Shown one piece after another: positions 2,508 through 38,536 of a DNA stretch of 64,000 nt. Origin of the DNA: Candidatus Terraquivivens tengchongensis (GTDB lineage Archaea > Thermoproteota > Nitrososphaeria_A > Caldarchaeales > Wolframiiraptoraceae); the NCBI GenBank assembly GCA_023261845.1, contig JALNJZ010000003.1, positions 79,383 to 143,382 of the forward strand, read 5' to 3'. Each line of letters begins with the position of its first letter. The stretch's first letter is position 1. The position numbers and the translations under genes are program-made. Under the pieces are notes generated by a model. That model was given only the letters and a program-made list of their open reading frames with translations. It searched no databases and was not told the origin of the DNA.

Positions 2508-3179
2508 TTAGGCCTTTTCATATGAACCGCATGATGCGTTCTTAAGTCTCATCATTTGCTTAACAAACTCGTAATATTCCTGCGGCGACAACTCGCTAAC
2601 CATTACTTCGTCAACGTTTATCACGTAGATCATGTAAAGCCTTGCGTTAAGTATCTCTTCAAGACTAACGGGCGGTTTCGTGTAGTAGAGGTCGCAGATT
2701 CTTTTAATGTAAAGTATCTCTTCCTTAGTCCTGTCCCTTGGTGGTTTTAAGAATACATGTGGCACTTGGACGATGTTATGTGGCGGCGTTCCGATGCCGA
2801 ACTTTTTTGCAAAAGCGCTGTACCTAGCTATTTTGCTGGCAACCCTGGCTAAGAGATAGGTATTGGGGTCGAGTGCATGCTCAGGAGGCACGAAACCTGT
2901 CTCTATCTCGATTATGATGTTACCATCACCTTTTACTCCATATATATCGCATGTGAGTATCTCGTTAAGCTTATGCTCAGCGTCCACCTCATATCCCTTA
3001 ACGATTAGGTCGGCAGCGCAGACGACCTCCATCACGGAATGGTTTATCTTAACCATGTTGGCTTCGTATAACTTACACAATTTTTTATACACGTCGTCAA
3101 GTTTGTTTACAACTTCTTTGCCGTACTTATCGCCTATTTGCGCGATGACTTTCAAGACGTCTTCTTCGAATTTATTCAT
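2508..3179 (-). CDS. Conserved archaeal hypothetical protein, probable PD-(D/E)XK-like fold
   Basis: E…CDIYG…IIIEIETG pattern; ATG at 3179 is more plausible than the ORF-track start at 3326. Confidence 0.65.
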   Translation of the reverse strand: MNKFEEDVLKVIAQIGDKYGKEVVNKLDDVYKKLCKLYEANMVKINHSVMEVVCAADLIVKGYEVDAEHKLNEILTCDIYGVKGDGNIIIEIETGFVPPEHALDPNTYLLARVASKIARYSAFAKKFGIGTPPHNIVQVPHVFLKPPRDRTKEEILYIKRICDLYYTKPPVSLEEILNARLYMIYVINVDEVMVSELSPQEYYEFVKQMMRLKNASCGSYEKA

Positions 3180-10518: not shown

Positions 10519-12171
10519 ATGTACGCAATTCCAGAGGATAGGTTAAATCTATTCGCACAAACAGCGCTCGAAGCTTCGAGAAACCTCTTTAAAGAAGATG
10601 ACGTATCATGCCTCTGCATTTATGGATCGCAAGTTTCTGGCTATTCTTCAAAGAGTAGCGACTTGGATGTGTTGTGTGTAGTGAAAGGTTTCAAAGAGGA
10701 CATAAAGTATTACTATCTAAGGAATTTCGAGCCTACCGTCGCCGTCTTAGCGGTTGACGAAGATGCTATGAGGAGTGATGTGACAAGCGGTTCTTTGGGA
10801 GAATTCGTTGCAGGAAGACTCCTAACGCCGTTTTATCCTGTTGTAGGCGTCGCGCTTTTGAAAGAATTCGATAAGACCTACAAGAAGAATGTTGTTTTGG
10901 AACTATGTGATAATCTGATACTGGAACACAGGATGGCGGCGAGCGAGCTCTTGATACGACCCGAGTATTTTCTCTTCGAGAAGTTAAGGAGAAGGGCTTT
11001 GATGTACCCGCCAGCGCGCTATAGTTATTCAAAGATATTTTCTGGTCCCTATAAGAAGGTGAATACAGAAATTTGCATGAAAGGGTTCCATGCAGCTTTT
11101 GCGGAATTGGAATCTGAAGGTCTACTGGTCAAGGATGGCGAGTATTATCGCCTGTCTAACAAGTTTGTAGTTTCAACCTTAAACAGGGTAAGCACATTTG
11201 CCAAGAAACTTTATGATTTCGAAAGAATGTTTAAGATGTATCTCGTGCACGGTTATGCAGGGCGCTTTAACCCGCGTATCATAGCGGAGGAACTCTACTC
11301 AAAAATCAGGAGGTCGCTATTTTACAAAGTTGAAGATGAACTTCCGGACCCGGAAGAATATGTGTTCATAAAAACCGCCATAGGAGAACAACCGTTAAAA
11401 GAGCGATTTGACATCCTAGATTTCGTTGAACAAGTTTATGACGTAGACAGAAATCAAATATCTATAAAGAAAATAGGCAGGATGCTTAACTCGACTTACG
11501 CGGTCACGATCCGCACAAAAGATTCAGAAGAGAAAATCTTTGTGAAGAAATACCTTAACTGGACAGATCTGAAGTGGGTAGTGGCGAGAATTTGGACCGT
11601 CGGTGTGAAGAATTTTTCGGTCGTAGCTGAAGTCAGACTTTCAAATGAAGTTTACTTCGTTAACAAGCTAGCGGAACTTGGCTTTAATACAGCTGACATA
11701 TACCATGTAAATTGGAAGAAGAAGATGTTGTTCCAAAAATTCATCGAAGGACAAGACCTCATGCAGATATGGACGTCAGGAAGTGAGCAAAACGTGCGAC
11801 AGAAGGCGGCGTTTATAGTAGGGAAAGAATTGGCAAAGATTCATCAATACAACATCACATTAGGTGATTGTAAACCTGAAAACGTCATAATCTCTGGAGA
11901 CAAAGTTTACATAACAGACTTAGAACAAGCTTCGTTCAACGGTGATAAGGCATGGGACTTAGCAGAGATTATCCTTTACATAGGACATTATCTCGATGTA
12001 AATAAATCGGTAGAATATGCGCGCTCCCTTTTATCTGGATACCTATCCGTCGGAAGCAAGGATGTTCTGGAGAATGTTATTAGTGGTAAGTATACATCGC
12101 TCTTGGTACCTTGGACACCCGTATGGGTGCAGAAGAGAGTTCTTAGCGAGGTGAAAGCGTTTCTTCGATAG
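10519..12171 (+). CDS. Fusion of Pol-beta-type nucleotidyltransferase and Bud32/Kdo-like kinase domains
   Basis: N-terminal YGSQVSG…SDLDV; C-terminal FVKK, IH…GDCKPEN, DLE. Confidence 0.75.
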   Translation: MYAIPEDRLNLFAQTALEASRNLFKEDDVSCLCIYGSQVSGYSSKSSDLDVLCVVKGFKEDIKYYYLRNFEPTVAVLAVDEDAMRSDVTSGSLGEFVAGRLLTPFYPVVGVALLKEFDKTYKKNVVLELCDNLILEHRMAASELLIRPEYFLFEKLRRRALMYPPARYSYSKIFSGPYKKVNTEICMKGFHAAFAELESEGLLVKDGEYYRLSNKFVVSTLNRVSTFAKKLYDFERMFKMYLVHGYAGRFNPRIIAEELYSKIRRSLFYKVEDELPDPEEYVFIKTAIGEQPLKERFDILDFVEQVYDVDRNQISIKKIGRMLNSTYAVTIRTKDSEEKIFVKKYLNWTDLKWVVARIWTVGVKNFSVVAEVRLSNEVYFVNKLAELGFNTADIYHVNWKKKMLFQKFIEGQDLMQIWTSGSEQNVRQKAAFIVGKELAKIHQYNITLGDCKPENVIISGDKVYITDLEQASFNGDKAWDLAEIILYIGHYLDVNKSVEYARSLLSGYLSVGSKDVLENVISGKYTSLLVPWTPVWVQKRVLSEVKAFLR

Positions 12172-28654: not shown

Positions 28655-29965
28655 TTAATCTGAAGATCTTAGCTCAAACTTTGCGCCTAGGCTGGCAAGG
28701 TCTTCAAGAAAATTCGGGTAAGATACGCTCGCGGATTCTGCTCCTATTACTGTGCACCCTTCCTCCAGAATAAGTCCTAAGAGACAATAGGCCATGAAGA
28801 GCCTATGGTCACCTCTTGGGTCGAGTACGGCATGTTTAACCAGTTTGCCCTGCGTTATGCTTAACCCATCCGTCGACTCTCTTACGTTCATTCCGATCTT
28901 AGAAAGAGTATGGGCAAGGGCGCTGACCCTATCGCTTTCCTTAACCCTTGCATGCTCTACGCCAGTTATCTCGAGCGTCCCTTCACACTTAGTAGCTAAG
29001 ACTGCTAGGACTGGCAAAAGATCTGGAGAATCGGATAGGTTAAAGCTACCACCTCTAAGCTTTCCACTTCCACTAACCATTACACGTCCAGAGCCGTAAT
29101 CCAATTTAACATTAGCCCCCATCTTGATAAGTATATCAACTATAGCAGCATCAGCTTGCGGTAAATCTTGACTAAGCCCCTCAACTGTAACTGAACCGTC
29201 TGTCATGAGCGCCGCGACCATCATGAAGGAGGCGAGTCCAAAATCCCCCGGCACTGTGAAACGTGCGGGCTTAAAATTCTGTTGTGAAGGAATGTGAAAG
29301 ACTTTATACCCTTCTCTTTTTATACGAATGCCGAACTGCTCCAGTACGTTTATGGTTGAGTCAACATAAGGCCTCGAGACAAGGTCTCCTTGTATTATGA
29401 GCGTCGTATCGTTTAGGGCCTTTGGTGATGAGAAGAGTATAGACGATACGAACTGGGATGATATGCTGCCAGTCATCCAAGCATTGCCGCCCTTTAACCC
29501 GCTACCTTTAACAATTATGGGTGCACAACCGTTGAGTCTCGTAGACCAGCACTCCCCTCCGAGCATGTTAAGGGCATCGAGTAGCGGTTGCATCGGTCTT
29601 CTCCTTATGCTCTCATCACCTGTGAGGACTACGTACCCATCTTTGACTAAGCAGCTCACACCAGTCATTATCCTTAACGTAGTTCCAGAATTCTGAACGT
29701 TCACAACATCATCCGGTACCTTAGGTGTTGAGAAACCACTGATGATGAGCCCGTCCCCCTCTTCAATTATGGATGCACCGAATTTCTTACACGCGTTAAT
29801 CGTAGCGATTACATCATTGGATTTTGAAACGTTTTTTACGACACACTCACCATCGGTCATAGAGGCTGCTATTATCGCCCTATGGCTGTAGCTTTTGCTG
29901 GGAGGTGCCCGTACTCTACCCGATATTACCGACGGTCTAATTAAGACCTGCAACGGAATCACCAA
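28655..29965 (-). CDS. aroA: 3-phosphoshikimate 1-carboxyvinyltransferase
   Basis: PPSKSYSHR, NSGTTLR, SSQFVS, KESDR, DHR. Confidence 0.96.
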   Translation of the reverse strand: MVIPLQVLIRPSVISGRVRAPPSKSYSHRAIIAASMTDGECVVKNVSKSNDVIATINACKKFGASIIEEGDGLIISGFSTPKVPDDVVNVQNSGTTLRIMTGVSCLVKDGYVVLTGDESIRRRPMQPLLDALNMLGGECWSTRLNGCAPIIVKGSGLKGGNAWMTGSISSQFVSSILFSSPKALNDTTLIIQGDLVSRPYVDSTINVLEQFGIRIKREGYKVFHIPSQQNFKPARFTVPGDFGLASFMMVAALMTDGSVTVEGLSQDLPQADAAIVDILIKMGANVKLDYGSGRVMVSGSGKLRGGSFNLSDSPDLLPVLAVLATKCEGTLEITGVEHARVKESDRVSALAHTLSKIGMNVRESTDGLSITQGKLVKHAVLDPRGDHRLFMAYCLLGLILEEGCTVIGAESASVSYPNFLEDLASLGAKFELRSSD

Positions 29966-30815
29966 CCCATGAATAGGCTTTCTTATTATTCGGTTTGGCT
30001 ATTATAAGTTCGCACCCTTTTTCACTTAACATATTAGCAACATCGCTTACCACATCTTTTTTACATACAGCGGCGATGGCAGGTCCAGTGCCGGATAGGC
30101 CGGCAGCTAAGGCTCCTGCTCTTATGGCATCCAAAGTCTTCTTCATGCTGTAGTTTAACGCTGCCGCATGAAGAATGCCGTTAAGTGTTAGGGCTCTCCA
30201 ATATTCCCCGTTCATGGACATCTTATACGCCTCCTCAACAAAGGATGCGATAGGCTTGAGTGCATTTTTATCGAAAAACTTAGTATAGCTTTTCAATTCT
30301 GGGACGAGCAAAACGACGACAAGGTCCTCTGGAGCTTCAACCCTCCTCATAAGCTGCCTCTTCAAGTTATCTGTGACGACTATACCGCCATAATAGCTAG
30401 CACATGCATCATCGTACGCGCCAGTTATAGTAACACCAGCTTCGATTGCGGCATCTACTGCTATGTTTAATATCTCAGCATCACTCAAGTTTAAGCCCGC
30501 AGCCCTTGCCGTAGCCAGAACTATGGCATTTGCGGCTGCGCTGGAACTCTTCAGTCCTCTACCGATAGGTATATTCGATCTTATTTCGACATAAGCCCCA
30601 CAATCCATCTGTGCTAGCTTCAAGATCTTTCTTACCGCCGCCTTTGCAAGTGTTGTATCCTCGTCTGGGTTTTCCTTTATCACCACGTCTATATCTCTGC
30701 CACCTATCTCCACCGTAGCCTCTGTGTAAAGGTCGATGCCCATTGCCGCTCCCTTACCGATTGATATAGCGTTAACGATCGTTATGGCACCGTGCGCCCT
30801 AGCAGTCGCCTTCAT
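29937..30815 (-). CDS. aroK: Archaeal (GHMP-type) shikimate kinase
   Basis: GAITIVNAI, IPIGRGLKSSSA, TGAYDDA, GLSGTGP; start ATG 30815 overlaps the aroE stop. Confidence 0.93.
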   Translation of the reverse strand: MKATARAHGAITIVNAISIGKGAAMGIDLYTEATVEIGGRDIDVVIKENPDEDTTLAKAAVRKILKLAQMDCGAYVEIRSNIPIGRGLKSSSAAANAIVLATARAAGLNLSDAEILNIAVDAAIEAGVTITGAYDDACASYYGGIVVTDNLKRQLMRRVEAPEDLVVVLLVPELKSYTKFFDKNALKPIASFVEEAYKMSMNGEYWRALTLNGILHAAALNYSMKKTLDAIRAGALAAGLSGTGPAIAAVCKKDVVSDVANMLSEKGCELIIAKPNNKKAYSWVGDSVAGLN

Positions 30816-31684
30816 ACAAAACGACCTATTGTCTTGATGGCAACACTCTTCATAACCTCTATCGGCGGCTCTAAAGACGTCCACAGCTTAAAGGACTCTG
30901 CAGCCTGAAAGACCAGCATGTCAAGCCCGGAGACACATGTAGCGCCCGCAAGCTTCGCCTCTTTCAGAAGCATAGTTTCGGGAGGATTGTATACCATATC
31001 CATCACGATAGAGCCGCTCGGTATCTGCTCCTTCCTAAGTAGCGAGTGCTCAATATTCGGCCACATGCCAACTGGTGTCGCGTTGATTATAACACTGCAA
31101 GCTTTAGCAATTGCGGGTAATTCGTTGATAGAAAGTCCCATACCTTTTGCAGAAATTTTAATTCTTCTTTTAAGGAAGTTCGCAAGTCTACGGGCCCTTG
31201 AAGGTGTACGACTAACAAATGTTATGCGATTACAACCAAGCCTGGCCAACGCTAGCGCAGCGGCAGAAGCGCCTCCGCCTGCACCAAGGATTAACGCTTC
31301 ATGACCGCTTATTGCATCTTTGTACGGCATGAGAGCATTCATTACGCCTGAAACGTCTGTGTTGTATCCAACCATTCTATCCTTCTCGATCACGACGGTA
31401 TTCACCGTCTTTATGATTTTAGCATCATCTGCAAGTTTATCCAAAAACCTCACGACCCTCTGTTTGTATGGTATCGTTACGTTAAAACCTGCCGCTCCTA
31501 GAGCCTTAAGGCCTCTGATCGCGTGTCCAAGTTCTTTTTCTTTTACATCAAATGCGATGTAGAAGTAATCAACGTTCATGTGATTAAAAGCAGCGTTGTG
31601 AATAGCTGGTGATATCGAATGCTTCACCGGTTGCCCGATGAGACCTACAAGTCTTTTGTTACCAGAGCGTGTTTGTGCTGACAT
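30812..31684 (-). CDS. aroE: Shikimate dehydrogenase
   Basis: HSISPAIHN, NVTIPYK, NTD, GAGG, NATPVGM, DMVYNP. Confidence 0.95.
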   Translation of the reverse strand: MSAQTRSGNKRLVGLIGQPVKHSISPAIHNAAFNHMNVDYFYIAFDVKEKELGHAIRGLKALGAAGFNVTIPYKQRVVRFLDKLADDAKIIKTVNTVVIEKDRMVGYNTDVSGVMNALMPYKDAISGHEALILGAGGGASAAALALARLGCNRITFVSRTPSRARRLANFLKRRIKISAKGMGLSINELPAIAKACSVIINATPVGMWPNIEHSLLRKEQIPSGSIVMDMVYNPPETMLLKEAKLAGATCVSGLDMLVFQAAESFKLWTSLEPPIEVMKSVAIKTIGRFV

Positions 31685-31690
31685 CTTAGA

Positions 31691-32392
31691 TCACTTTCCA
31701 CAGCAGCTCGATGAAAGCATACGGATTATTTCCTTCGCCTCAGTGATACTGAGTTGGCCGGGCGCCGTAGGTGCTCCGGGTAACGAGACGTACATGAAGG
31801 GCGCACCCAACATTACTGAGAGAAAACGCGACAAGATTCCTTCTACTCCCATGCAAAAGGCGATGAGCCTATGCTTATCATATGTATGATATAATGAGAG
31901 AATCCTGAGGTTATCGCTGAAGGACCTCGCCATGGTTACTACTTTTGTTATACTTCCAGATTTCATGGCTAAGTCGACTATCCTTCGTAGCTCATCGCTT
32001 TCCGGTGTCTTTTCAAAGTCGTGCCATGAAACTATCAAGGCCGTGCCCGTACCCATCAACTCTTTCGATAAATCTTGAAAAATGGGGGAACGAAGCTCTA
32101 TGTCAACGTACGCCGGACCTTCCCTACTCAGTCGCTTTAAAATCTTTACCCTTTCTTCTTCGTTACCCTCAAACAGTCCGTTCTCATAGCTCGGTCTGAG
32201 CGTCAACACCAATTTACCCATATAGGGTCTTAATGTCGAGCTTACAACGTTAACGTCCAACTCCTTCAAGTAATCAAGTCTAACCTCTACGATATCTGCA
32301 CCGCTGTTTATTGCTTTAACCACCGCATCTTTCAAGGATTGTATATCTCTCCCAAACGTCGATACGCATAGTTTGAACCGTTCCGTACTCAT
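31691..32392 (-). CDS. aroD: Type I 3-dehydroquinate dehydratase
   Basis: EVRLD, VSWHDFEKTP, FCMG…SR, APGQ. Confidence 0.93.
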   Translation of the reverse strand: MSTERFKLCVSTFGRDIQSLKDAVVKAINSGADIVEVRLDYLKELDVNVVSSTLRPYMGKLVLTLRPSYENGLFEGNEEERVKILKRLSREGPAYVDIELRSPIFQDLSKELMGTGTALIVSWHDFEKTPESDELRRIVDLAMKSGSITKVVTMARSFSDNLRILSLYHTYDKHRLIAFCMGVEGILSRFLSVMLGAPFMYVSLPGAPTAPGQLSITEAKEIIRMLSSSCCGK

Positions 32393-32430
32393 GAATATTA
32401 CTTCACCAGTTCTTATGGTTAATCGGCATT

Positions 32431-33489
32431 TTACCTCTCTACTATGAATTCGTCAACTGACACCCCAAAATGTCTGGCCTTCTCTTTACTTATGTGCGCC
32501 AATACTTTATCGCCCGGCTTAACCTCGGTTACCGAGATGGGCTTGCCATCTGGCCCTACGAGCCTTATGGTCTCAGCATTTTGCAAGATAACTGTCCCTT
32601 CTTCACCGTCAGCCTCTGCCTTGATGAGTCTCAGCGGCCTCCTTTCTATCTTCACCCTACCGACTGTTGTTGGTCTTGCTGAGCCTTGTGTATTAACCAC
32701 TAAAACTCTGTCACCTGCCCTTATCTCCGACAAATACTTAGTTCCACCAGTAGGGGTTAGAATGTAACTATGTATCGCACCCGCGTTTACTCTGAAGGGT
32801 CTTGGCTCCGTGAACGATGAACCTAAAGATTCGCTATGGATGAGAAACAGAAACCCTGCCTTACTTCCGACGAGCATCCCCTCCCCTATCGATAAAATAG
32901 AGACCGTATCAATACATGCCCTATCTCCTATCCCAACATCCTTAACATCCGTAATTTCGACTGGAGATAACTGAACCCTTGTGATGTAGCTGATCACTTC
33001 GAAGATTCTACCAACCTCCTCTTTGTTCCTTGGCTTGAATAAGACGGCGTCAACGCCCCTCTCTAGTATACCGTACATAATCTCAACCTCTTCTGGACTA
33101 CTAACCTTCGCAATGAGCTTCGTCGATGTTTTTTGCAGATACGCGATTATGTTCTCTAGTGGGATTATTTTCCAGTCCTTTGTGTCAACTATCAAGGCTT
33201 CAGCACCAAGCTTAGCCGCGGAGACTAACTTCTCTACGTCGCCATAGTTTAGCACGACGGCATGTACCGCAAACCTCTTCGCTTGCGGCACATCTTTACC
33301 AATAGGTACAACAAGAACGTCGCCGGCTGGCGAGTCTGAGTATATCGTAAGCCTTTGCCTAAACTCTAGTGGAACGTTAGCAGGGTCGCAGTAGTATGTG
33401 GTGATCCCTTTTGATAGGGCTTCCCTAAAGATTTCGTCGTTCCAGTCTCTTAAATCTATGCAGATCTCTTTTTTACTTAGCGGAAGCGT
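32431..33489 (-). CDS. aroB': 3-dehydroquinate synthase II (probable ACG start at 33489)
   Basis: DWKIIPLEN, GDRACID, RPFRVNAG, GRVKIERRP, ARHFG; frame stays open 66 codons upstream of the ORF-track GTG at 33291. Confidence 0.92.
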   Translation of the reverse strand, partial: TLPLSKKEICIDLRDWNDEIFREALSKGITTYYCDPANVPLEFRQRLTIYSDSPAGDVLVVPIGKDVPQAKRFAVHAVVLNYGDVEKLVSAAKLGAEALIVDTKDWKIIPLENIIAYLQKTSTKLIAKVSSPEEVEIMYGILERGVDAVLFKPRNKEEVGRIFEVISYITRVQLSPVEITDVKDVGIGDRACIDTVSILSIGEGMLVGSKAGFLFLIHSESLGSSFTEPRPFRVNAGAIHSYILTPTGGTKYLSEIRAGDRVLVVNTQGSARPTTVGRVKIERRPLRLIKAEADGEEGTVILQNAETIRLVGPDGKPISVTEVKPGDKVLAHISKEKARHFGVSVDEFIVER

Positions 33490-34270
33490 CTTTGAGCACC
33501 TCCAGAGCCTCTTTGACCGTGTAGTCTTCGATTATTATGGCCCTGAGCGCCCTAGTTATCGCGAATGGGTTATCGTGCTGGAACACGTTCCTGCCTATTG
33601 CCGCACCGATAGCTCCGGCATCCATCGCCTCCCTTACCATCTTCAAAACTTCTAAGTCGCTTTCCGCTTTCGGCCCACCGGCTATGACTATAGGGACGGG
33701 ACAACCATCCACGACCTTTCTAAATGTCTCTGGGCTGCCTATGTAGGGCGTCTTTACGATGTCTGCTCCAAGCTCAGCACCTATCCTCGCGACATGTGCG
33801 GCAACGTCGGGGTCGTTTGGATTCTTTATATTCTCACCCCTCGGATACATCATTGCTATGAACGGTACCTGCCATTCATCACACTCGTCAGCAAGCATTC
33901 CAAGCTTTCTCAACATCTTCGGCTCATCGCTGCATCCTATGTTGACATGAACGGAAACTGCGTCCGCCCCAAGCCTTAAAGCCTCTTCAACGCCCGAAAC
34001 TCTCACTTTGAGGTTAGGCGATGGTCCTAAAGATGTGCTCGCAGAAACGTGCATTATGGTACCAACGTTCAAAGGTTTGGGCATAACCCTCAGTATGCCT
34101 TTGTGTGTCAAAACGGCCGTGGCTCCTCCGAGGCTAACCTTTTCTATCGTATCAAATATCTTGTCCAAGCCTTTAACCGGACCTATAGTAACTCCGTGGT
34201 CCATCGGTATGCATAACATCCTTCCTTTTTCCGTTATCCTATTCAACCTGACCTGCTTTCCGAACACCAT
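33473..34270 (-). CDS. aroA': 2-amino-3,7-dideoxy-D-threo-hept-6-ulosonate synthase (DhnA-type aldolase)
   Basis: PMDHG, MMYPRG, GAELGADIVKT, AGGP, GRNVFQH; adjacent to aroB'. Confidence 0.92.
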   Translation of the reverse strand: MVFGKQVRLNRITEKGRMLCIPMDHGVTIGPVKGLDKIFDTIEKVSLGGATAVLTHKGILRVMPKPLNVGTIMHVSASTSLGPSPNLKVRVSGVEEALRLGADAVSVHVNIGCSDEPKMLRKLGMLADECDEWQVPFIAMMYPRGENIKNPNDPDVAAHVARIGAELGADIVKTPYIGSPETFRKVVDGCPVPIVIAGGPKAESDLEVLKMVREAMDAGAIGAAIGRNVFQHDNPFAITRALRAIIIEDYTVKEALEVLKDASAK

Positions 34271-34272
34271 GT

Positions 34273-35328
34273 CTACTCTATCCTCCCAGATGCATGTAGC
34301 AGCTCAGCCGTCAGTATCGCTATGCCGGCAGCACCCCTTATCGTGTTATGGCTAAGAACAAAGAACTTTAGAGCCCTCTCATCTTTTGCAGACCTTACCC
34401 TTCCAACGACCGCACTCATGCCTGGAACGCTTCCAGCATATATGTCGAGCCTTGGTTGTGGTCTATCTTCCTCCTCCATCACGATTATCGGTCTCTCAGG
34501 AGCTGTAGGTAGCGCCAGCCTCTGTGGAAGGCCTTTGAATTCCGCTAGCACCCTTTTCGCATCTTCTACGCTCACAACTTTCTCTGTCTCGATGTAGACG
34601 GATTCTAAGTGTCCATCTATCGTGGGAACTCTGGTACAACTAGCCTCGATGGCTATACGGGCTGACTCAATGGACCCGTCCTTAAACCTTCCCAGTATCT
34701 TCTGTGTTTCTTTTTCTACCTTTCCCTCCTCGCCTGATATGTACGGTATAACGTTCCCGAGTATAGAAAGCGAAGGTACGCCTGGGAAGCCCGCACCCGA
34801 GACTGCCTGCATCGTAGTTACCACGACCTTCTTGAGACAATAAGCATCGTGCAATGGTTTAAGGGGCATGACTAGACCTACGGTTGTGCAGTTGGGCGTG
34901 GTTACTATGTACCCATCCCACTTCCTATTCTTTTTCTGAACATCTATTAACTCGATGTGCTCCGGGTTTATCTCCGGCACGATGAGCGGTACGTCTTTCT
35001 CCATCCTATGAGCAGAAGCATCGCTTACAACTGGGAAGCCTTCTTGCGCAAAAAGTGGTTCTGACTCATGAGCAGCTTCAGTAGGTAGCGGGGAGAACGC
35101 CAAGTCTGCATCAACATATTTTGGCTCGTTCGGTACGACCTCCATATCCGCTACACTGGATGGAATATCGATCGGGTTCCCCCTCACTGCTTCTCCATAC
35201 TTCTTACCGACAGATTCCTTCCCCGTTAGGCATGAGAGTTTGAACCATGGATGTCTCGAGAGTATGCTTACGTATCGTTGGCCGACCATTCCAGTGGCTC
35301 CTAACACGGCAACTTTAATTTGTTTCAT
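34273..35328 (-). CDS. asd: Aspartate-semialdehyde dehydrogenase
   Basis: GATGMVGQ, PNCTT, QAVSGAG, HNTIRGAAG. Confidence 0.96.
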   Translation of the reverse strand: MKQIKVAVLGATGMVGQRYVSILSRHPWFKLSCLTGKESVGKKYGEAVRGNPIDIPSSVADMEVVPNEPKYVDADLAFSPLPTEAAHESEPLFAQEGFPVVSDASAHRMEKDVPLIVPEINPEHIELIDVQKKNRKWDGYIVTTPNCTTVGLVMPLKPLHDAYCLKKVVVTTMQAVSGAGFPGVPSLSILGNVIPYISGEEGKVEKETQKILGRFKDGSIESARIAIEASCTRVPTIDGHLESVYIETEKVVSVEDAKRVLAEFKGLPQRLALPTAPERPIIVMEEEDRPQPRLDIYAGSVPGMSAVVGRVRSAKDERALKFFVLSHNTIRGAAGIAILTAELLHASGRIE

Positions 35329-36538
35329 TCAATTCCACCTCCAGATTTGCTTTTACAAGAGAGGCAGCTTTCTCCGCGTCTTTTGCGGACACGAATATCC
35401 TGATTGACGAACTTATAGTTACCAAACCGTAGATATTTATGCCACGCTGTGCGAGCGGTGCTACGACTTTATATATCAAGCCCGGACTCGTTTCGAGCAT
35501 TCTACCGCTTACGCTTATAGCAGACAGCCCCTCGAAAAAGCTTATGGCCTTACCCATGCCCGATTCCACAACCTCCTTATGCAGCTCATCTATTAGCTTG
35601 GTGTCCAAGTCCGTGTAAATTATGATGGATTTTTCGCCGGTCGTTATATTGAGGATTTCACCGTTGTGCTTTTGAACAAACTCTACGACAGGTTTAACCA
35701 TGGACGCACCGTCCGAGTTTCTTGAGAGTATCGTTATCATGGTTACTTTAGCCGGGTGTCTGCTGACTTCGAGCTTTGGAAGTGTGCCAATTATGACTGT
35801 TCCCGACTTCCCTAGACCTTCCATGCTAGATATTCTTAACTTGAGGTCCCCTGACAGATACCTCAACGCTTTCGAGTGAATGATCTTTGCACCACCTTCT
35901 GTTAAAAGTTTGGCCTCATCTACGTCAAGCGTCTCTAGTATCTCGGCTTTGCTGACCTTATCCGGATCTCCCGAATATATGCCCTCAACATCTTTAATTA
36001 AGACAACTTCTGCAGCATTTAGACAGCTGCCGAGCAATATGGCGGTCGTGTCACTGCCACCCCTGCCCAGCGTAGTTATCTTACCCGAAGTACTAACACC
36101 AATATATCCGCATACAACAGGAACTTTGCCGGCCTCAATCAGTGGCAATAGTTTCTCTTTACATCTTTTCTCCGTCTCGTGATAGATGGGGTTTGCATCA
36201 AGATGTACATCGTCCGTTATTATAGGCCAGTACTCGTTAGATGGGTCCACCAAGACAGCGTCGACACCAAACCTATTCAACGCAGCCGTGAAAAGTCTCG
36301 CGCTTGTCCTTTCACCCATCGCCAAAATTTCGTCGAGCATGTCGGGTCGAATGTCCGGGTTAACATCTTTAGCTGTCTTCAACAGCTCATCAGTCATTCC
36401 CTTTAGCGCCGAGACCACTACTACCAGTCCGTATTCCTTCAGCAGGTCCTTCACCCAGGACGCTGCCCTTTCAAGGGCTCTAGAGTCTTGGAGGACAGAG
36501 CCACCAAGCTTTACGACCATTATATTTTTCATAGGCAC
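35315..36538 (-). CDS. lysC: Aspartate kinase (start 36538 GTG or 36532 ATG)
   Basis: VVKLGGS, TLGRGGSDTTA, KDVEGIYSGDP, C-terminal ACT-like domains; SD GGAGGGAGG at 36549-36541. Confidence 0.94.
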   Translation of the reverse strand: MPMKNIMVVKLGGSVLQDSRALERAASWVKDLLKEYGLVVVVSALKGMTDELLKTAKDVNPDIRPDMLDEILAMGERTSARLFTAALNRFGVDAVLVDPSNEYWPIITDDVHLDANPIYHETEKRCKEKLLPLIEAGKVPVVCGYIGVSTSGKITTLGRGGSDTTAILLGSCLNAAEVVLIKDVEGIYSGDPDKVSKAEILETLDVDEAKLLTEGGAKIIHSKALRYLSGDLKLRISSMEGLGKSGTVIIGTLPKLEVSRHPAKVTMITILSRNSDGASMVKPVVEFVQKHNGEILNITTGEKSIIIYTDLDTKLIDELHKEVVESGMGKAISFFEGLSAISVSGRMLETSPGLIYKVVAPLAQRGINIYGLVTISSSIRIFVSAKDAEKAASLVKANLEVELNETN

Positions 36539-36540
36539 GA

Positions 36541-36702
36541 CCTCCCTCCAAAGCTGTTAAAACACAGAAAGGAGAAGATGGCTTCAGAGAGAGGCGTCCG
36601 GCTCGCTATAGCGATAATAGCGGTAGCCGGTCGTGAGGAAAAGGCGATCCCTCACGTTCGCCGCCTCTCTTTAGTAATTTGCATTCACGTTGGTTATTTA
36701 AA
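36541..36702 (-). promoter_or_regulatory. Promoter and structured 5' leader of the lysC-asd-aro operon
   Basis: TTTAAATA at 36702-36695; three-way junction 36670-36588; pyrimidine-rich anti-SD segments. Confidence 0.65.
36584..36655 (-). CDS. Putative Tyr-rich leader peptide MRDRLFLTTGYRYYRYSEPDASL
   Basis: GTG start 5 nt after SD-like GAGGCGG; TAC CGC TAT TAT CGC TAT at 36625-36608; TGA at 36586-36584; lies between the TATA box and lysC. Confidence 0.65.
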   Translation of the reverse strand: MRDRLFLTTGYRYYRYSEPDASL

Positions 36703-36797
36703 CGTTTCGAACATACGGAAAATCCACGTCATTATAGCCATTATGTTGCCAGCTAAAACTTCTAAGCGTTTATATTTGAGGATACAACTAGGTGTAG

Positions 36798-37463
36798 TTG
36801 GTTTTAGAAAAGGAGGATCAGCTAGCGTCCATGTCTAAAGGTAAGACGGGAAATTATGCTTGTGTCGTCCTTGTAAACGGAAGGGGTTACATGGGCGACA
36901 AGAAAGGTTTGGTGAAGATAGCCGGGAGGCCCATGATCGAGTACGTCCTCGATAGCGTACCAGACGAGGTTACGGAATTGTTCGTATCGGTTGAGAACGA
37001 AATGCAGGCCGCAGCCTACGGGCCTATATGCGAGAAGTACTTTGCTTCACTCATGAGACTGGAGAAAACTCAGTACCTGAACGAACATGAAAAGATAAAA
37101 GAGGTTCTGGAGAACGTTCCGGGTTCTAATATACTCGTCCTTCCTTGCGATATGCCGTGTATCACGTTAGAATTTACTTACTTCTTATTAGAGGCCTCTA
37201 AGAAATTCACAGCAGTATTGCCTAGGATGCTGGATAATAACGTTGACTTCAGCTTAGCGTCCTATCAAGCCGAACCTTTTCTTGAGGCATTTAAAAAGTA
37301 TCCTGAAATGCGCCTACCTGAGCTCATTAAGAAACTTAGGAATGTGCTTTATGTATCAACTAATGCCCTAAGGATGTTTGACAGCAAGCTTAGTATTCTA
37401 TACAGGGTATCTTCTGCGGCGGACGTACCAAAAGTGGAGAACATACTCCGCAACAGGTTATAA
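36798..37463 (+). CDS. MobA-like NTP-transferase family protein (degenerate)
   Basis: MGDKKGLVKIAGRPMIEYV and VLPCDMP. Confidence 0.7.
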   Translation: MVLEKEDQLASMSKGKTGNYACVVLVNGRGYMGDKKGLVKIAGRPMIEYVLDSVPDEVTELFVSVENEMQAAAYGPICEKYFASLMRLEKTQYLNEHEKIKEVLENVPGSNILVLPCDMPCITLEFTYFLLEASKKFTAVLPRMLDNNVDFSLASYQAEPFLEAFKKYPEMRLPELIKKLRNVLYVSTNALRMFDSKLSILYRVSSAADVPKVENILRNRL

Positions 37464-37483: not shown

Positions 37484-38536
37484 ATGTGCTGGAGTTGCGG
37501 TATGAAGGTAACCTATGGTAAGTTACCAAAAGAAGTGTTAGAAAAAACAGTCTTCAGGTGGCTAGGTGCGAGGAGAAAGGACGTCTTACTATGGCCGGCA
37601 TACGGTGAGGATGCTGCCGTCGTCAATGCACCCGAGAGGTGTCTGGTTGTAACATGCGACCCCATCACAGGTTCGAGGAAGTTAATCGGATGGTTGGCGG
37701 TTCACATAAATGCTAACGACGTAGCGGTTTGTGGTGCAAAGCCCGCTTGGTTCTCGTCTTGCATACTACTGCCCGAAGATGATGAAGCTCTTTTCGCATC
37801 CATAGTCAAGCAGATTCATAAGGCAGCATCAGAGCTTCATGTCTCCGTCATCACAGGCCACTCCGAGGTTGCGCTTTACGTATCCGAACCGATAATAATC
37901 GGCACGATGATAGGTGTGCTTGAAGGTAATAAATATTACAGGACCGGAGGCGCGAAGCCTGGCGATAAGATACTCATGACGAAGACTGCGGCCATAGAGG
38001 GAACGGCGATACTTGCGACGGACTTATCAGAAGTACTTAGCTCGAAGGTAGACAAACCTTTACTCAAAAGAGCCTCTGCTTTTTACAGGAAGATAAGTGT
38101 CGTAGATGAGGCTTTAAGGATAGCGTCAACGGGCCTTGCTACGGCGATGCACGACCCAACTGAAGGAGGCTTGTTGGGTGGGCTTTACGAAATGGCCGAA
38201 GCGTCCGGGACAGGGTTTGTTGTTTATGAGGACACGATACCGATTGCAAAGGAAACTAGGATAATTTGTGAGACACTCGGTTGCGACCCTTTAAAGCTGA
38301 TAAGCTCGGGCACACTAATAGCATCTGTTAGGGGCGATTATAAAAAGCTCATTACCGCTCTTAAAAGGGCGGGTGTAAAAGCTACGATTATAGGTGAAGT
38401 GGTGCCCAAAAAGAATGGAAGGAAATTGATAAGGTCTGAAGGCAACGTCGAGAACATAAAGTCGACAATTACGGACGAGTTATGGCGAATATTGTCAGAA
38501 TACCCTCCTTCAAGTACGAGTAGATTAGCCGTATGA
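37484..38536 (+). CDS. AIR synthase-related (PurM/HypE-like) protein
   Basis: GEDAAV, DPITG, NANDVA, GHSE, MHDPTEGG, LISSGTL. Confidence 0.87.
   Translation: MCWSCGMKVTYGKLPKEVLEKTVFRWLGARRKDVLLWPAYGEDAAVVNAPERCLVVTCDPITGSRKLIGWLAVHINANDVAVCGAKPAWFSSCILLPEDDEALFASIVKQIHKAASELHVSVITGHSEVALYVSEPIIIGTMIGVLEGNKYYRTGGAKPGDKILMTKTAAIEGTAILATDLSEVLSSKVDKPLLKRASAFYRKISVVDEALRIASTGLATAMHDPTEGGLLGGLYEMAEASGTGFVVYEDTIPIAKETRIICETLGCDPLKLISSGTLIASVRGDYKKLITALKRAGVKATIIGEVVPKKNGRKLIRSEGNVENIKSTITDELWRILSEYPPSSTSRLAV

Follow-up and report, generated by a model that had tools for sequence, protein, structure and literature searches.

A candidate aromatic leader-peptide regulator of an archaeal aromatic amino acid operon

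Bacteria provide the textbook cases of leader-peptide attenuation, a mechanism that relies on coupled transcription and translation. In its transcriptional form, exemplified by trpL and pheL/pheA of Escherichia coli and represented in Rfam by Trp_leader and Phe_leader, a short 5′ open reading frame (ORF) rich in codons for the end product is combined with mutually exclusive helices that are read by the position of the ribosome. In translation attenuation, as in ermC, cat-86 and cmlA, a leader ORF lies beside a hairpin that sequesters the ribosome-binding site (RBS). Transcription–translation coupling has reportedly been seen in archaea too, by French et al. in 2007. Here, we describe a 5′ leader in a 64,000-nucleotide (nt) stretch of Candidatus Terraquivivens tengchongensis DNA (contig JALNJZ010000003.1; hereafter the window, with positions counted from its first letter). 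The leader precedes an aspartate kinase gene that heads an operon for aromatic amino acid synthesis, and it combines a 23-codon mini-ORF containing Tyr and Phe codons with two competing RNA pairings, one of which involves the Shine–Dalgarno sequence (SD) of the kinase gene. Comparison across the phylum and RNA folding together make it likely that this is an aromatic leader-peptide regulator of an archaeal aro operon.

The locus resembles the trpL and pheL attenuators in its short 5′ ORF rich in end-product codons and in its exclusive helices, which would likewise be read by ribosome position; codon runs in its relatives, such as FFFSFWSYYYF, recall the Phe run of pheL. Unlike those systems, it has an archaeal host, no hairpin-plus-U-run terminator in the window and an inhibitory helix that holds the SD. 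Moreover, one leader here would sense all three aromatic amino acids, the operon starts with a kinase and asd that feed a route through 2-amino-3,7-dideoxy-D-threo-hept-6-ulosonate (ADH) synthase and 3-dehydroquinate (DHQ) synthase II, and none of the Rfam leader families matches. With ermC, cat-86 and cmlA it shares a leader ORF beside an RBS-sequestering hairpin, ribosome position presumably deciding access. In those systems, however, a drug-bound ribosome is the signal and the stall site covers or frees the hairpin arm directly, whereas here the presumed signal is hungry aromatic codons and stalls would fall upstream of the arm. With stalls so placed in this genus, a competitor arm at the 5′ end (that of helix P1, below) would be needed.

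Mycobacterial polycysteine leaderless short ORFs have been described as cysteine-responsive attenuators (bioRxiv 10.1101/834739). To judge from the accessible part of that account, they too place a codon-run mini-ORF before an operon to sense an amino acid outside the classical proteobacterial terminators, and they differ in being bacterial, leaderless and cysteine-specific. Full-text literature searches, whose scope left out most subscription journals and supplements, returned no report of an archaeal amino acid leader peptide or of ribosome-mediated attenuation in archaea; the accessible parts of PMC8632103, PMC1262725, PMC6566652 and PMC12482152 describe no archaeal amino acid leader peptide.

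Leader ORF and competing folds in Candidatus Terraquivivens

The leader lies on the minus strand between a promoter-like block and the kinase gene, and comprises the following features.

36695-36709, minus strand: promoter-like B recognition element/TATA block, CGAAACG followed by TTTAAATA (from sequence; block conserved in 7/7 congeners)
36662-36670, minus strand: 5′ arm of helix P1, AGAGAGGCG, which holds the leader's SD-like GAGG (RNAfold; 9/9 pairs invariant in seven sequences)
36584-36655, minus strand: leader ORF, GTG to TGA, 23 codons, MRDRLFLTTGYRYYRYSEPDASL (listed ORF; frame, length and stop position the same in 7/7 congeners)
36632-36656, minus strand: hairpin P2, whose 5′ arm contains the leader start codon (RNAfold; 98% of cells paired)
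36598-36630, minus strand: hairpin P3, formed by the Tyr codons (RNAfold; alternative register also seen)
36581-36599, minus strand: anti-SD arm, overlapping the P1 3′ arm CGCCTCTCT (36596-36588) and the end of the leader ORF, from its fourth-last codon through the stop (RNAfold, RNAalifold)
36571-36577, minus strand: second anti-SD, CTTCTCC, which pairs with the SD once P1 holds the first anti-SD (P1-forced fold)
36559-36570, minus strand: T-rich tract TTTCTGTGTTTT, in the loop between anti-SD and SD (from sequence)
36540-36554, minus strand: SD arm GCTTTGGAGGGAGGT, with the SD GGAGGGAGGT at 36549-36540, 7 nt before the kinase ATG at 36532

Archaeal TATA boxes lie at about −26, which predicts a transcript start at ~36673-36671, 2–3 nt 5′ of P1; the gap between the promoter block and AGAGAGGCG is about 23 nt. 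The leader ORF runs from GTG (36655-36653) to TGA (36586-36584), with the SD-like GAGG (36667-36664) 8 nt 5′ of its start, and has five aromatic residues, four Tyr (Y11, Y13, Y14 and Y16) and one Phe (F6). By DNA search, the leader occurs in 6/6 congeners (84–89% identity) and in 0/34 other genomes of the order, that is, in 7/41 overall; these seven sequences, the window's included, are the seven congeners referred to throughout. Their alignment conserves the promoter block and the 165-nt leader (mean column identity 89%), and diverges further upstream. F6, Y11, Y14 and Y16 are the same in all seven, and Y13 is replaced by nothing but W, in two of them; residues differ at 11 other positions. 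Variants that change the peptide nevertheless keep the pairing: two C-to-T changes in P2 yield G-U pairs, and two pairs of P3 change on both sides. Because several nucleotide changes thus alter the peptide but keep pairs, selection seems to act on RNA pairing and aromatic codons rather than on the peptide. At 36607, a population variant (A to G on the minus strand; found in one DNA run and one metagenome contig, L118) also preserves pairing: in P3 a U-A pair becomes U-G, and leader codon 17 encodes Gly in place of Ser. A metagenome scan with the kinase protein found eight loci, five with a genus-type leader, of which three are identical to known leaders and two differ by single bases.

The RNAfold structure of 36673-36585 is exactly a three-way junction (−46.5 kcal/mol, z score −5.67, equalled by 0/200 shuffles), in which P1 pairs AGAGAGGCG (36670-36662) with CGCCTCTCT (36596-36588) and P3 contains the Tyr codons TAC 36625-23 and TAT 36619-17, 36616-14 and 36610-08. 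An earlier reading made from the sequence alone (the sequence-only reading) had proposed this minus-strand junction, and the sequence and RNAfold bear out the coordinates of all three helices. The plus strand folds slightly worse (−43.6 kcal/mol, z score −5.09, P2 shortened), as inverted repeats that contain G-U pairs should. In the 5′ half of the leader, loops and junctions hardly vary among the seven species.

The 3′ arm of P1 has a second possible partner. GCCTCTCTCTGAAGC (36595-36581) pairs with GCTTTGGAGGGAGGT (36554-36540) over 15 contiguous base pairs (bp), followed by a 3-nt bulge and 4 bp. This anti-SD:SD helix is both the minimum free energy (MFE) structure of the whole leader at 37 °C (z score −4.39) and the RNAalifold consensus of the seven congeners; its 15-bp core is 100% paired in the seven sequences, with four one-sided changes, and its four G-U pairs are possible only in minus-strand RNA. 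The stop-codon segment is more complementary to the SD region than in 40/40 shuffles in each of 7/7 congeners. The alternative pairing that had been proposed from the sequence is therefore real, conserved and better than shuffled controls, and the CTTCTCC and T-rich tract named with it are present as well.

Neither pairing is energetically negligible. The MFE with P1 forced, minus that with the SD helix forced, comes at 37 °C to 0.2, −0.4, −0.7, 1.3, −4.2, −0.6 and 8.0 kcal/mol in the seven congeners, so that the forced folds differ by at most 1.3 kcal/mol in 5/7; at 75 °C, P1 is favoured in 6/7 by 1.0–3.1 kcal/mol. P1 and the SD helix are thus predicted to be mutually exclusive, near-isoenergetic and balanced as a switch requires, and the 5′ arm of P1 may act as an anti-anti-SD. 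At this computational level, the proposal of mutually exclusive pairings stands, with nearly equal forced-fold energies and one of the two folds inhibitory.

The gene downstream of the leader, called lysC in the sequence-only reading, is an aspartate kinase but no lysine gene, and heads an aromatic operon (NCBIfam). Eight same-strand genes run from 36532 down to 28655, the part after the kinase occupying 28655-35328.

35315-36532, minus strand: aspartate kinase, first gene of the operon, ATG at 36532 (TIGR00657, 255 bits, over its cut-off)
34273-35328, minus strand: asd, archaeal type (NCBIfam, over cut-off)
33473-34270, minus strand: ADH synthase (2-amino-3,7-dideoxy-D-threo-hept-6-ulosonate synthase; NCBIfam, over cut-off)
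32431-33291, minus strand: DHQ synthase II (3-dehydroquinate synthase II; NCBIfam match)
31691-32392, minus strand: aroD (NCBIfam, over cut-off)
30812-31684, minus strand: aroE (NCBIfam, over cut-off)
29937-30884, minus strand: archaeal shikimate kinase (NCBIfam, over cut-off)
28655-29965, minus strand: EPSP synthase, aroA (NCBIfam, over cut-off)

ADH synthase condenses aspartate semialdehyde with 6-deoxy-5-ketofructose phosphate in the archaeal aromatic pathway, so the kinase and asd feed that pathway. The operon is one for aromatic amino acid synthesis by the aspartate semialdehyde/ADH route, with Tyr, Phe and Trp as end products, and the Tyr codons of the leader are therefore explained: they name an end product. 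A second kinase paralogue, of about 470 amino acids, is encoded at another site in the same genome.

Aromatic leader ORFs in other lineages

The leader ORF proposed in the sequence-only reading is a real feature, being conserved in the genus and having aromatic-rich counterparts at the equivalent place in many lineages. The class consists of one order, from which 76 genomes were sampled, and we examined the upstream regions of orthologous kinases (51–55% identity) in its other genera. Most of these loci carry a short ORF packed with aromatic codons that ends 38–53 nt before the kinase start. The F, W and Y content is at least 8/12 in 12 of 30 class loci, at least 6/12 in 17 and at least 5/12 in 23, with endings such as ..VFFFSFWSYYYFALA, ..YFYPFSRYFYYRF and ..FSYYYRW; the seven loci without an aromatic ORF all belong to one genus, in which another gene abuts the kinase. 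Eight further class loci scored 7, 6, 6, 5, 5, 5, 2 and 2 of 12. The wider phylum was sampled with 401 genomes, 87 of which contain this kinase clade. Outside the class, 27 of 52 loci have an ORF that is at least 7/12 aromatic and ends 55–95 nt before the kinase match (for example ..NPYYYYYYYCFF, ..RFFSFGYYFYYFN and ..FGFFYGFYFYFYFGP); the 27 span at least seven families and include two doubtful cases (L152 and L157) with longer frames ending about 120 nt away. Among 3000 random 206-nt segments of the window's genome, 0.7% reach 7/12, 0.1% reach 8/12 and 15% reach 5/12. In 38/47 loci, the start assigned to the leader has an SD-like motif before it. Set in this comparison, the window's ORF, weak by itself at 5/12, is the local version of an aromatic leader ORF that is conserved in position and very strongly supported.

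Metagenome-assembled genomes (MAGs) labelled Candidatus Bathyarchaeota or Bathyarchaeia also carry aromatic leader ORFs, and in one Bathyarchaeia-labelled MAG the ORF precedes genes for the kinase, ADH synthase, DHQ synthase II and aroD. These loci come from a contig scan that sampled at least 80 loci, most of them bacterial kinases and left unused; L038-L048 were inspected. One locus of this set, L039, from a MAG labelled Candidatus Borrarchaeum yapensis, is cut by the contig end; its last codons read ..FSFYFRF-stop and are followed by GGAGG. This Asgard-labelled MAG may carry the same device, unless binning or gene transfer accounts for it. In genus g8 (L027-L030, L037, L183 and L185), a gene with the C-terminal motif ..PMTPE(K/R)VYWL.. 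abuts the kinase and there is no aromatic ORF; other members of the genus keep short aromatic ORFs (..FRRFTYY, ..GRFKYY), which looks like leader loss or decay within g8.

Within the window's own genome, the region upstream of trpE (contig C2, L186, about 2766-2950, minus strand) holds no Trp-rich mini-ORF. A coarse search for runs of a single residue in 382 upstream regions returned only a Phe/Val-rich frame on contig C9, SVFLAFFFFVFVFVFVFLAFFF.., upstream of an ORF at 11112-11460 (minus strand); this Phe/Val repeat is probably a T-rich simple repeat. None of the genome's aromatic-rich frames stands beside an obvious aromatic gene, the downstream genes being unannotated. As far as these scans reach, the device seems confined in this genome to the operon of the common aromatic pathway.

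The RNA around the ORF follows a common design in three genera, the window's own, g11 and g12: a 5′-terminal purine-rich arm that includes the leader SD, a start-codon hairpin, aromatic codons and, at or just past the stop, a pyrimidine-rich arm that can pair either with the SD of the kinase gene or with the 5′ arm. In all three, the 5′ arm is complementary to the post-stop arm. The SD helix recurs with different sequence and covarying extensions in the two genera beside the window's (L015, L020, L018 and L021), a start-codon hairpin homologous to P2 is present in another genus (L018), and anti-SD:SD complementarity is significant also in g11 and in two outside families. Other genera of the class instead have a strong P1, whose 3′ arm encodes S-F-W-S, together with a hairpin that carries the stop codon in its loop. 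In genera g5 and g3 (L016, L017, L019, L022-L026, L032, L035 and L036), leaders end in ..F(A/T)(L/P)A, a strong hairpin such as GCCCTGGCG-TAA-GCCGGGGC holds the stop codon in its loop, and a conserved CTATAT-like motif immediately precedes the kinase SD; in these two genera neither the aromatic run nor the stop hairpin pairs significantly with that SD or with the 5′ arm. Loci of Bathyarchaeia type have a conserved hairpin directly past the stop, with an A/T run in its loop. In family f22 (L131 and L134), the leader ends in YYYYYYYCFF or YRYYYRFF and a perfect hairpin begins at the stop codon, followed by T5 and the SD; no other variant resembles a bacterial intrinsic terminator. The common denominators are the aromatic ORF, a helix that ties the 5′ end of the transcript to the ORF, and a stable helix with its 5′ arm at the stop codon.

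On these comparisons we lean, a little beyond even chances, towards a phylum-wide family of leader-peptide attenuators in the Thermoproteota, Bathyarchaeia-labelled MAGs included. Such a family would sense charged Phe, Trp and Tyr tRNA and control the aspartate-semialdehyde-dependent aromatic pathway without a bacterial-type terminator, its outputs being lineage specific, with SD occlusion in the window's genus and a stop-codon hairpin elsewhere.

Ribosome position and rival explanations

For the window's genus, we give about even chances to a leader-peptide sensor of aromatic aminoacyl-tRNA supply whose output is SD occlusion, with P1 as the competitor. The 5′ leader would carry a ribosome-read sensor, the 23-codon mini-ORF, whose relatives have runs of Phe, Trp and Tyr codons, and its anti-SD arm would alternate between the 5′-terminal arm (P1 formed, junction closed) and the kinase SD (translation blocked). 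When aromatic aminoacyl-tRNAs are scarce, the first ribosome would stall at the aromatic codons, upstream of the anti-SD arm; the newly transcribed arm would be caught by the free 5′ arm before the SD exists, leaving the SD unpaired and the operon translated. When supply is good, the ribosome would cross the anti-SD arm to the stop, so that P1 would be prevented or unwound, and upon release the arm would zip with the adjacent, finished SD (15–19 bp) and the operon would be held off. The 12 extra nt between the Tyr run and the arm, relative to g11, would keep the arm outside the stalled ribosome; P1 would have to close around the ribosome and resist invasion by the SD arm, with its 7-bp toehold. 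What we infer is that the ORF is translated, that ribosomes stall in it, which way control runs and that P1 can close around a stalled ribosome.

Several results weigh against this mechanism. In a footprint model in which 29 nt are blocked at successive codons and the probability of an unpaired SD is computed at equilibrium between 37 and 85 °C, the SD of the window leader stays paired with the ribosome on any Tyr codon (unpaired probability 0.00–0.01 at 37 °C and 0.05–0.14 at 75 °C), because the last Tyr codon lies 11–15 nt before the anti-SD arm and a stalled ribosome abuts the arm without covering it. Opening of the SD takes a ribosome at the very end of the ORF, on its last codons or the stop (0.17–0.67 unpaired across the congeners at 37 °C). 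Set beside the erm/cat type, the RBS does lie within the helix; a ribosome terminating at the leader stop covers the arm, and one stalled on Tyr does not. The sequence-only reading, in which ribosome position decides SD occlusion, is not borne out in that form by this constrained folding, since a Tyr stall leaves the SD paired. Simple unmasking by a stall was rejected as an equilibrium explanation in this genus. In g11 and g12, the last aromatic codon overlaps the arm and the SD opens in the model (0.45–0.64 unpaired; L015 and L021). Taken alone, the equilibrium models would favour translational coupling and the opposite polarity, which is wrong for a biosynthetic operon. Furthermore, in the P1 state the SD is predicted to pair with the second anti-SD up to about 75 °C, and in other genera and families a post-stop hairpin excludes the SD, so SD occlusion is not a universal output. 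P1 never varies in the seven sequences and therefore gives no covariation within the genus; pair counts do not stand out from shuffled controls (103/500 and 413/500, seven congeners), the genus being too shallow statistically for significance. The aromatic content of the window's ORF is one that, as noted, 15% of random segments attain. Finally, metatranscriptome contigs from one run cover the kinase gene up to 36390 and the divergent gene, with coverage ending before the leader; two sister RNA runs yielded no contigs on the stretch.

Modelling of the transcript before the SD is made gives a different balance. With the transcript ending before the SD arm, P1 is the predicted partner of the anti-SD arm whether or not a ribosome occupies the aromatic codons (probability 0.54–0.87 in the window); in four other leaders the probability of P1 is mostly above 0.6, the exception being L010 at 37 °C. 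This model ignores sterics and kinetics. The order in which the arms are transcribed would, we infer, resolve the polarity conflict of the equilibrium models. A classical four-segment arrangement, in which the 3′ arm of P3 pairs with the anti-SD arm or sequence downstream, was not seen by eye, with no dedicated computation.

The rival that survives best keeps the leader-peptide sensor and changes its output to premature transcription termination at the T-rich tract, intrinsic at oligo-T or factor-dependent, with SD pairing secondary; we consider it unlikely. A T4–T5 run lies 20–25 nt past the leader stop in 6/7 congeners, whereas L010 has T3 only. Runs of T4 or longer occur within 45 nt of the stop in 31/47 loci, against 19/47 control stretches (17 against 7 for T5), a modest enrichment among kin that are not independent. 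The perfect hairpin of f22 (L131 and L134), directly followed by T5, also speaks for termination, as does the burial of the leader SD and start in P1 and P2, which would fit a one-shot co-transcriptional decision by a pioneer ribosome. In the window, however, the T4 run (36565-36562) is part of the SD-helix loop, with the nearest stem about 20 nt away, and a bacterial-type terminator is absent, since the U tract to which the sequence-only reading tied possible termination adjoins no hairpin. Archaeal termination needs none; being hairpin-free, it would leave no evident way for ribosome position to modulate it with the right polarity.

The footprint models bear on a second rival, that of an activating upstream ORF or plain translational coupling, in which ribosomes completing the mini-ORF open the anti-SD:SD helix and thereby allow the kinase to be translated; the aromatic codons would then come about through the P3 palindrome and sense nothing. 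Long-range RBS occlusion with translational coupling is known from the coat–replicase arrangement of MS2. The likeness is that the 5′ arm of the occluding helix lies inside the upstream ORF and a passing ribosome opens the downstream site, as it does here in the footprint models; MS2, however, has neither amino acid sensing nor a competing 5′ arm. That the models open the SD only at the last codons or the stop, and that the TAT Tyr codons form the palindromic core of P3, are both as plain coupling would have it. We nonetheless regard it as improbable: aromatic runs of 8–10/12 recur outside hairpins in lineages with unrelated nucleotide sequence, they are tied to an aromatic biosynthesis operon, and a device that worked by coupling alone would turn the pathway off on exhaustion of the aromatic amino acids.

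The sequence-only reading also allowed a ligand- or protein-binding role. Purine and thiamine pyrophosphate riboswitches are classes of three-way-junction aptamer, and in the leader, as in these, P1 closes two hairpins and its 3′ strand is shared with an SD-hiding expression platform. A riboswitch-like aptamer or protein- or tRNA-binding element, with the ORF incidental, would be consistent with the z score of the junction (−5.7), the near-invariant loops and junctions of the 5′ half in seven species and the near-isoenergetic folds. Overlapping SD, start-codon, coding and pairing constraints also explain that invariance. Unlike the purine and thiamine pyrophosphate aptamers, moreover, the leader has no ligand pocket conserved beyond one genus, no family match and an ORF running through all three helices. 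Covariance models at the Rfam gathering thresholds match neither the window nor seven related loci, and the sole match to the window leader at E values up to 10 is CRISPR-DR46 (E 2.4). The three-way fold is confined to one genus (7/41 genomes by DNA), and because other genera keep the ORF, as lineages across the phylum do, with other folds, a binding role becomes very unlikely. Least likely of all, and hardly credible, are DNA operators for a transcription factor just 3′ of the TATA box with RNA folds as a side effect: the plus strand does fold almost as well (z score −5.09), P3 contains the palindrome GCTATAGC and the element starts right after the promoter, but the four G-U pairs of the SD helix and those of P2 can form only in minus-strand RNA, 65 nt separate the arms, and the ORF and its aromatic bias would go unexplained.

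Genomic setting and significance

The genome of this uncultured hot-spring archaeon comprises 1.22 Mb in 14 contigs (99.4% complete, 45% G+C). Across the promoter region lie two divergent genes, at 36798-37463 (plus strand), with a weak match to MobA-like nucleotidyltransferases, and at 37484-38536 (plus strand), whose AIR-synthase-fold product has HypE/ThiL-like matches below cut-offs. Near-identical DNA is found in hot springs metagenome runs from several studies, one DNA run spanning the entire stretch.

If the proposed regulation is true, no amino acid attenuation system would precede it in Archaea, and a mechanism familiar from bacterial textbooks would reach a large phylum that is mostly uncultured, with archaea using ribosome-read codon runs as metabolic sensors. 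It would also assign the second aspartate kinase of these genomes to the aromatic pathway, and give uncultured lineages, Bathyarchaeia-labelled MAGs among them, a marker for regulated aromatic biosynthesis. The SD-occluding, stop-codon-in-loop and hairpin-plus-T-run leaders would then form a natural variant set for how archaeal ribosomes and polymerases read such signals without a bacterial terminator.

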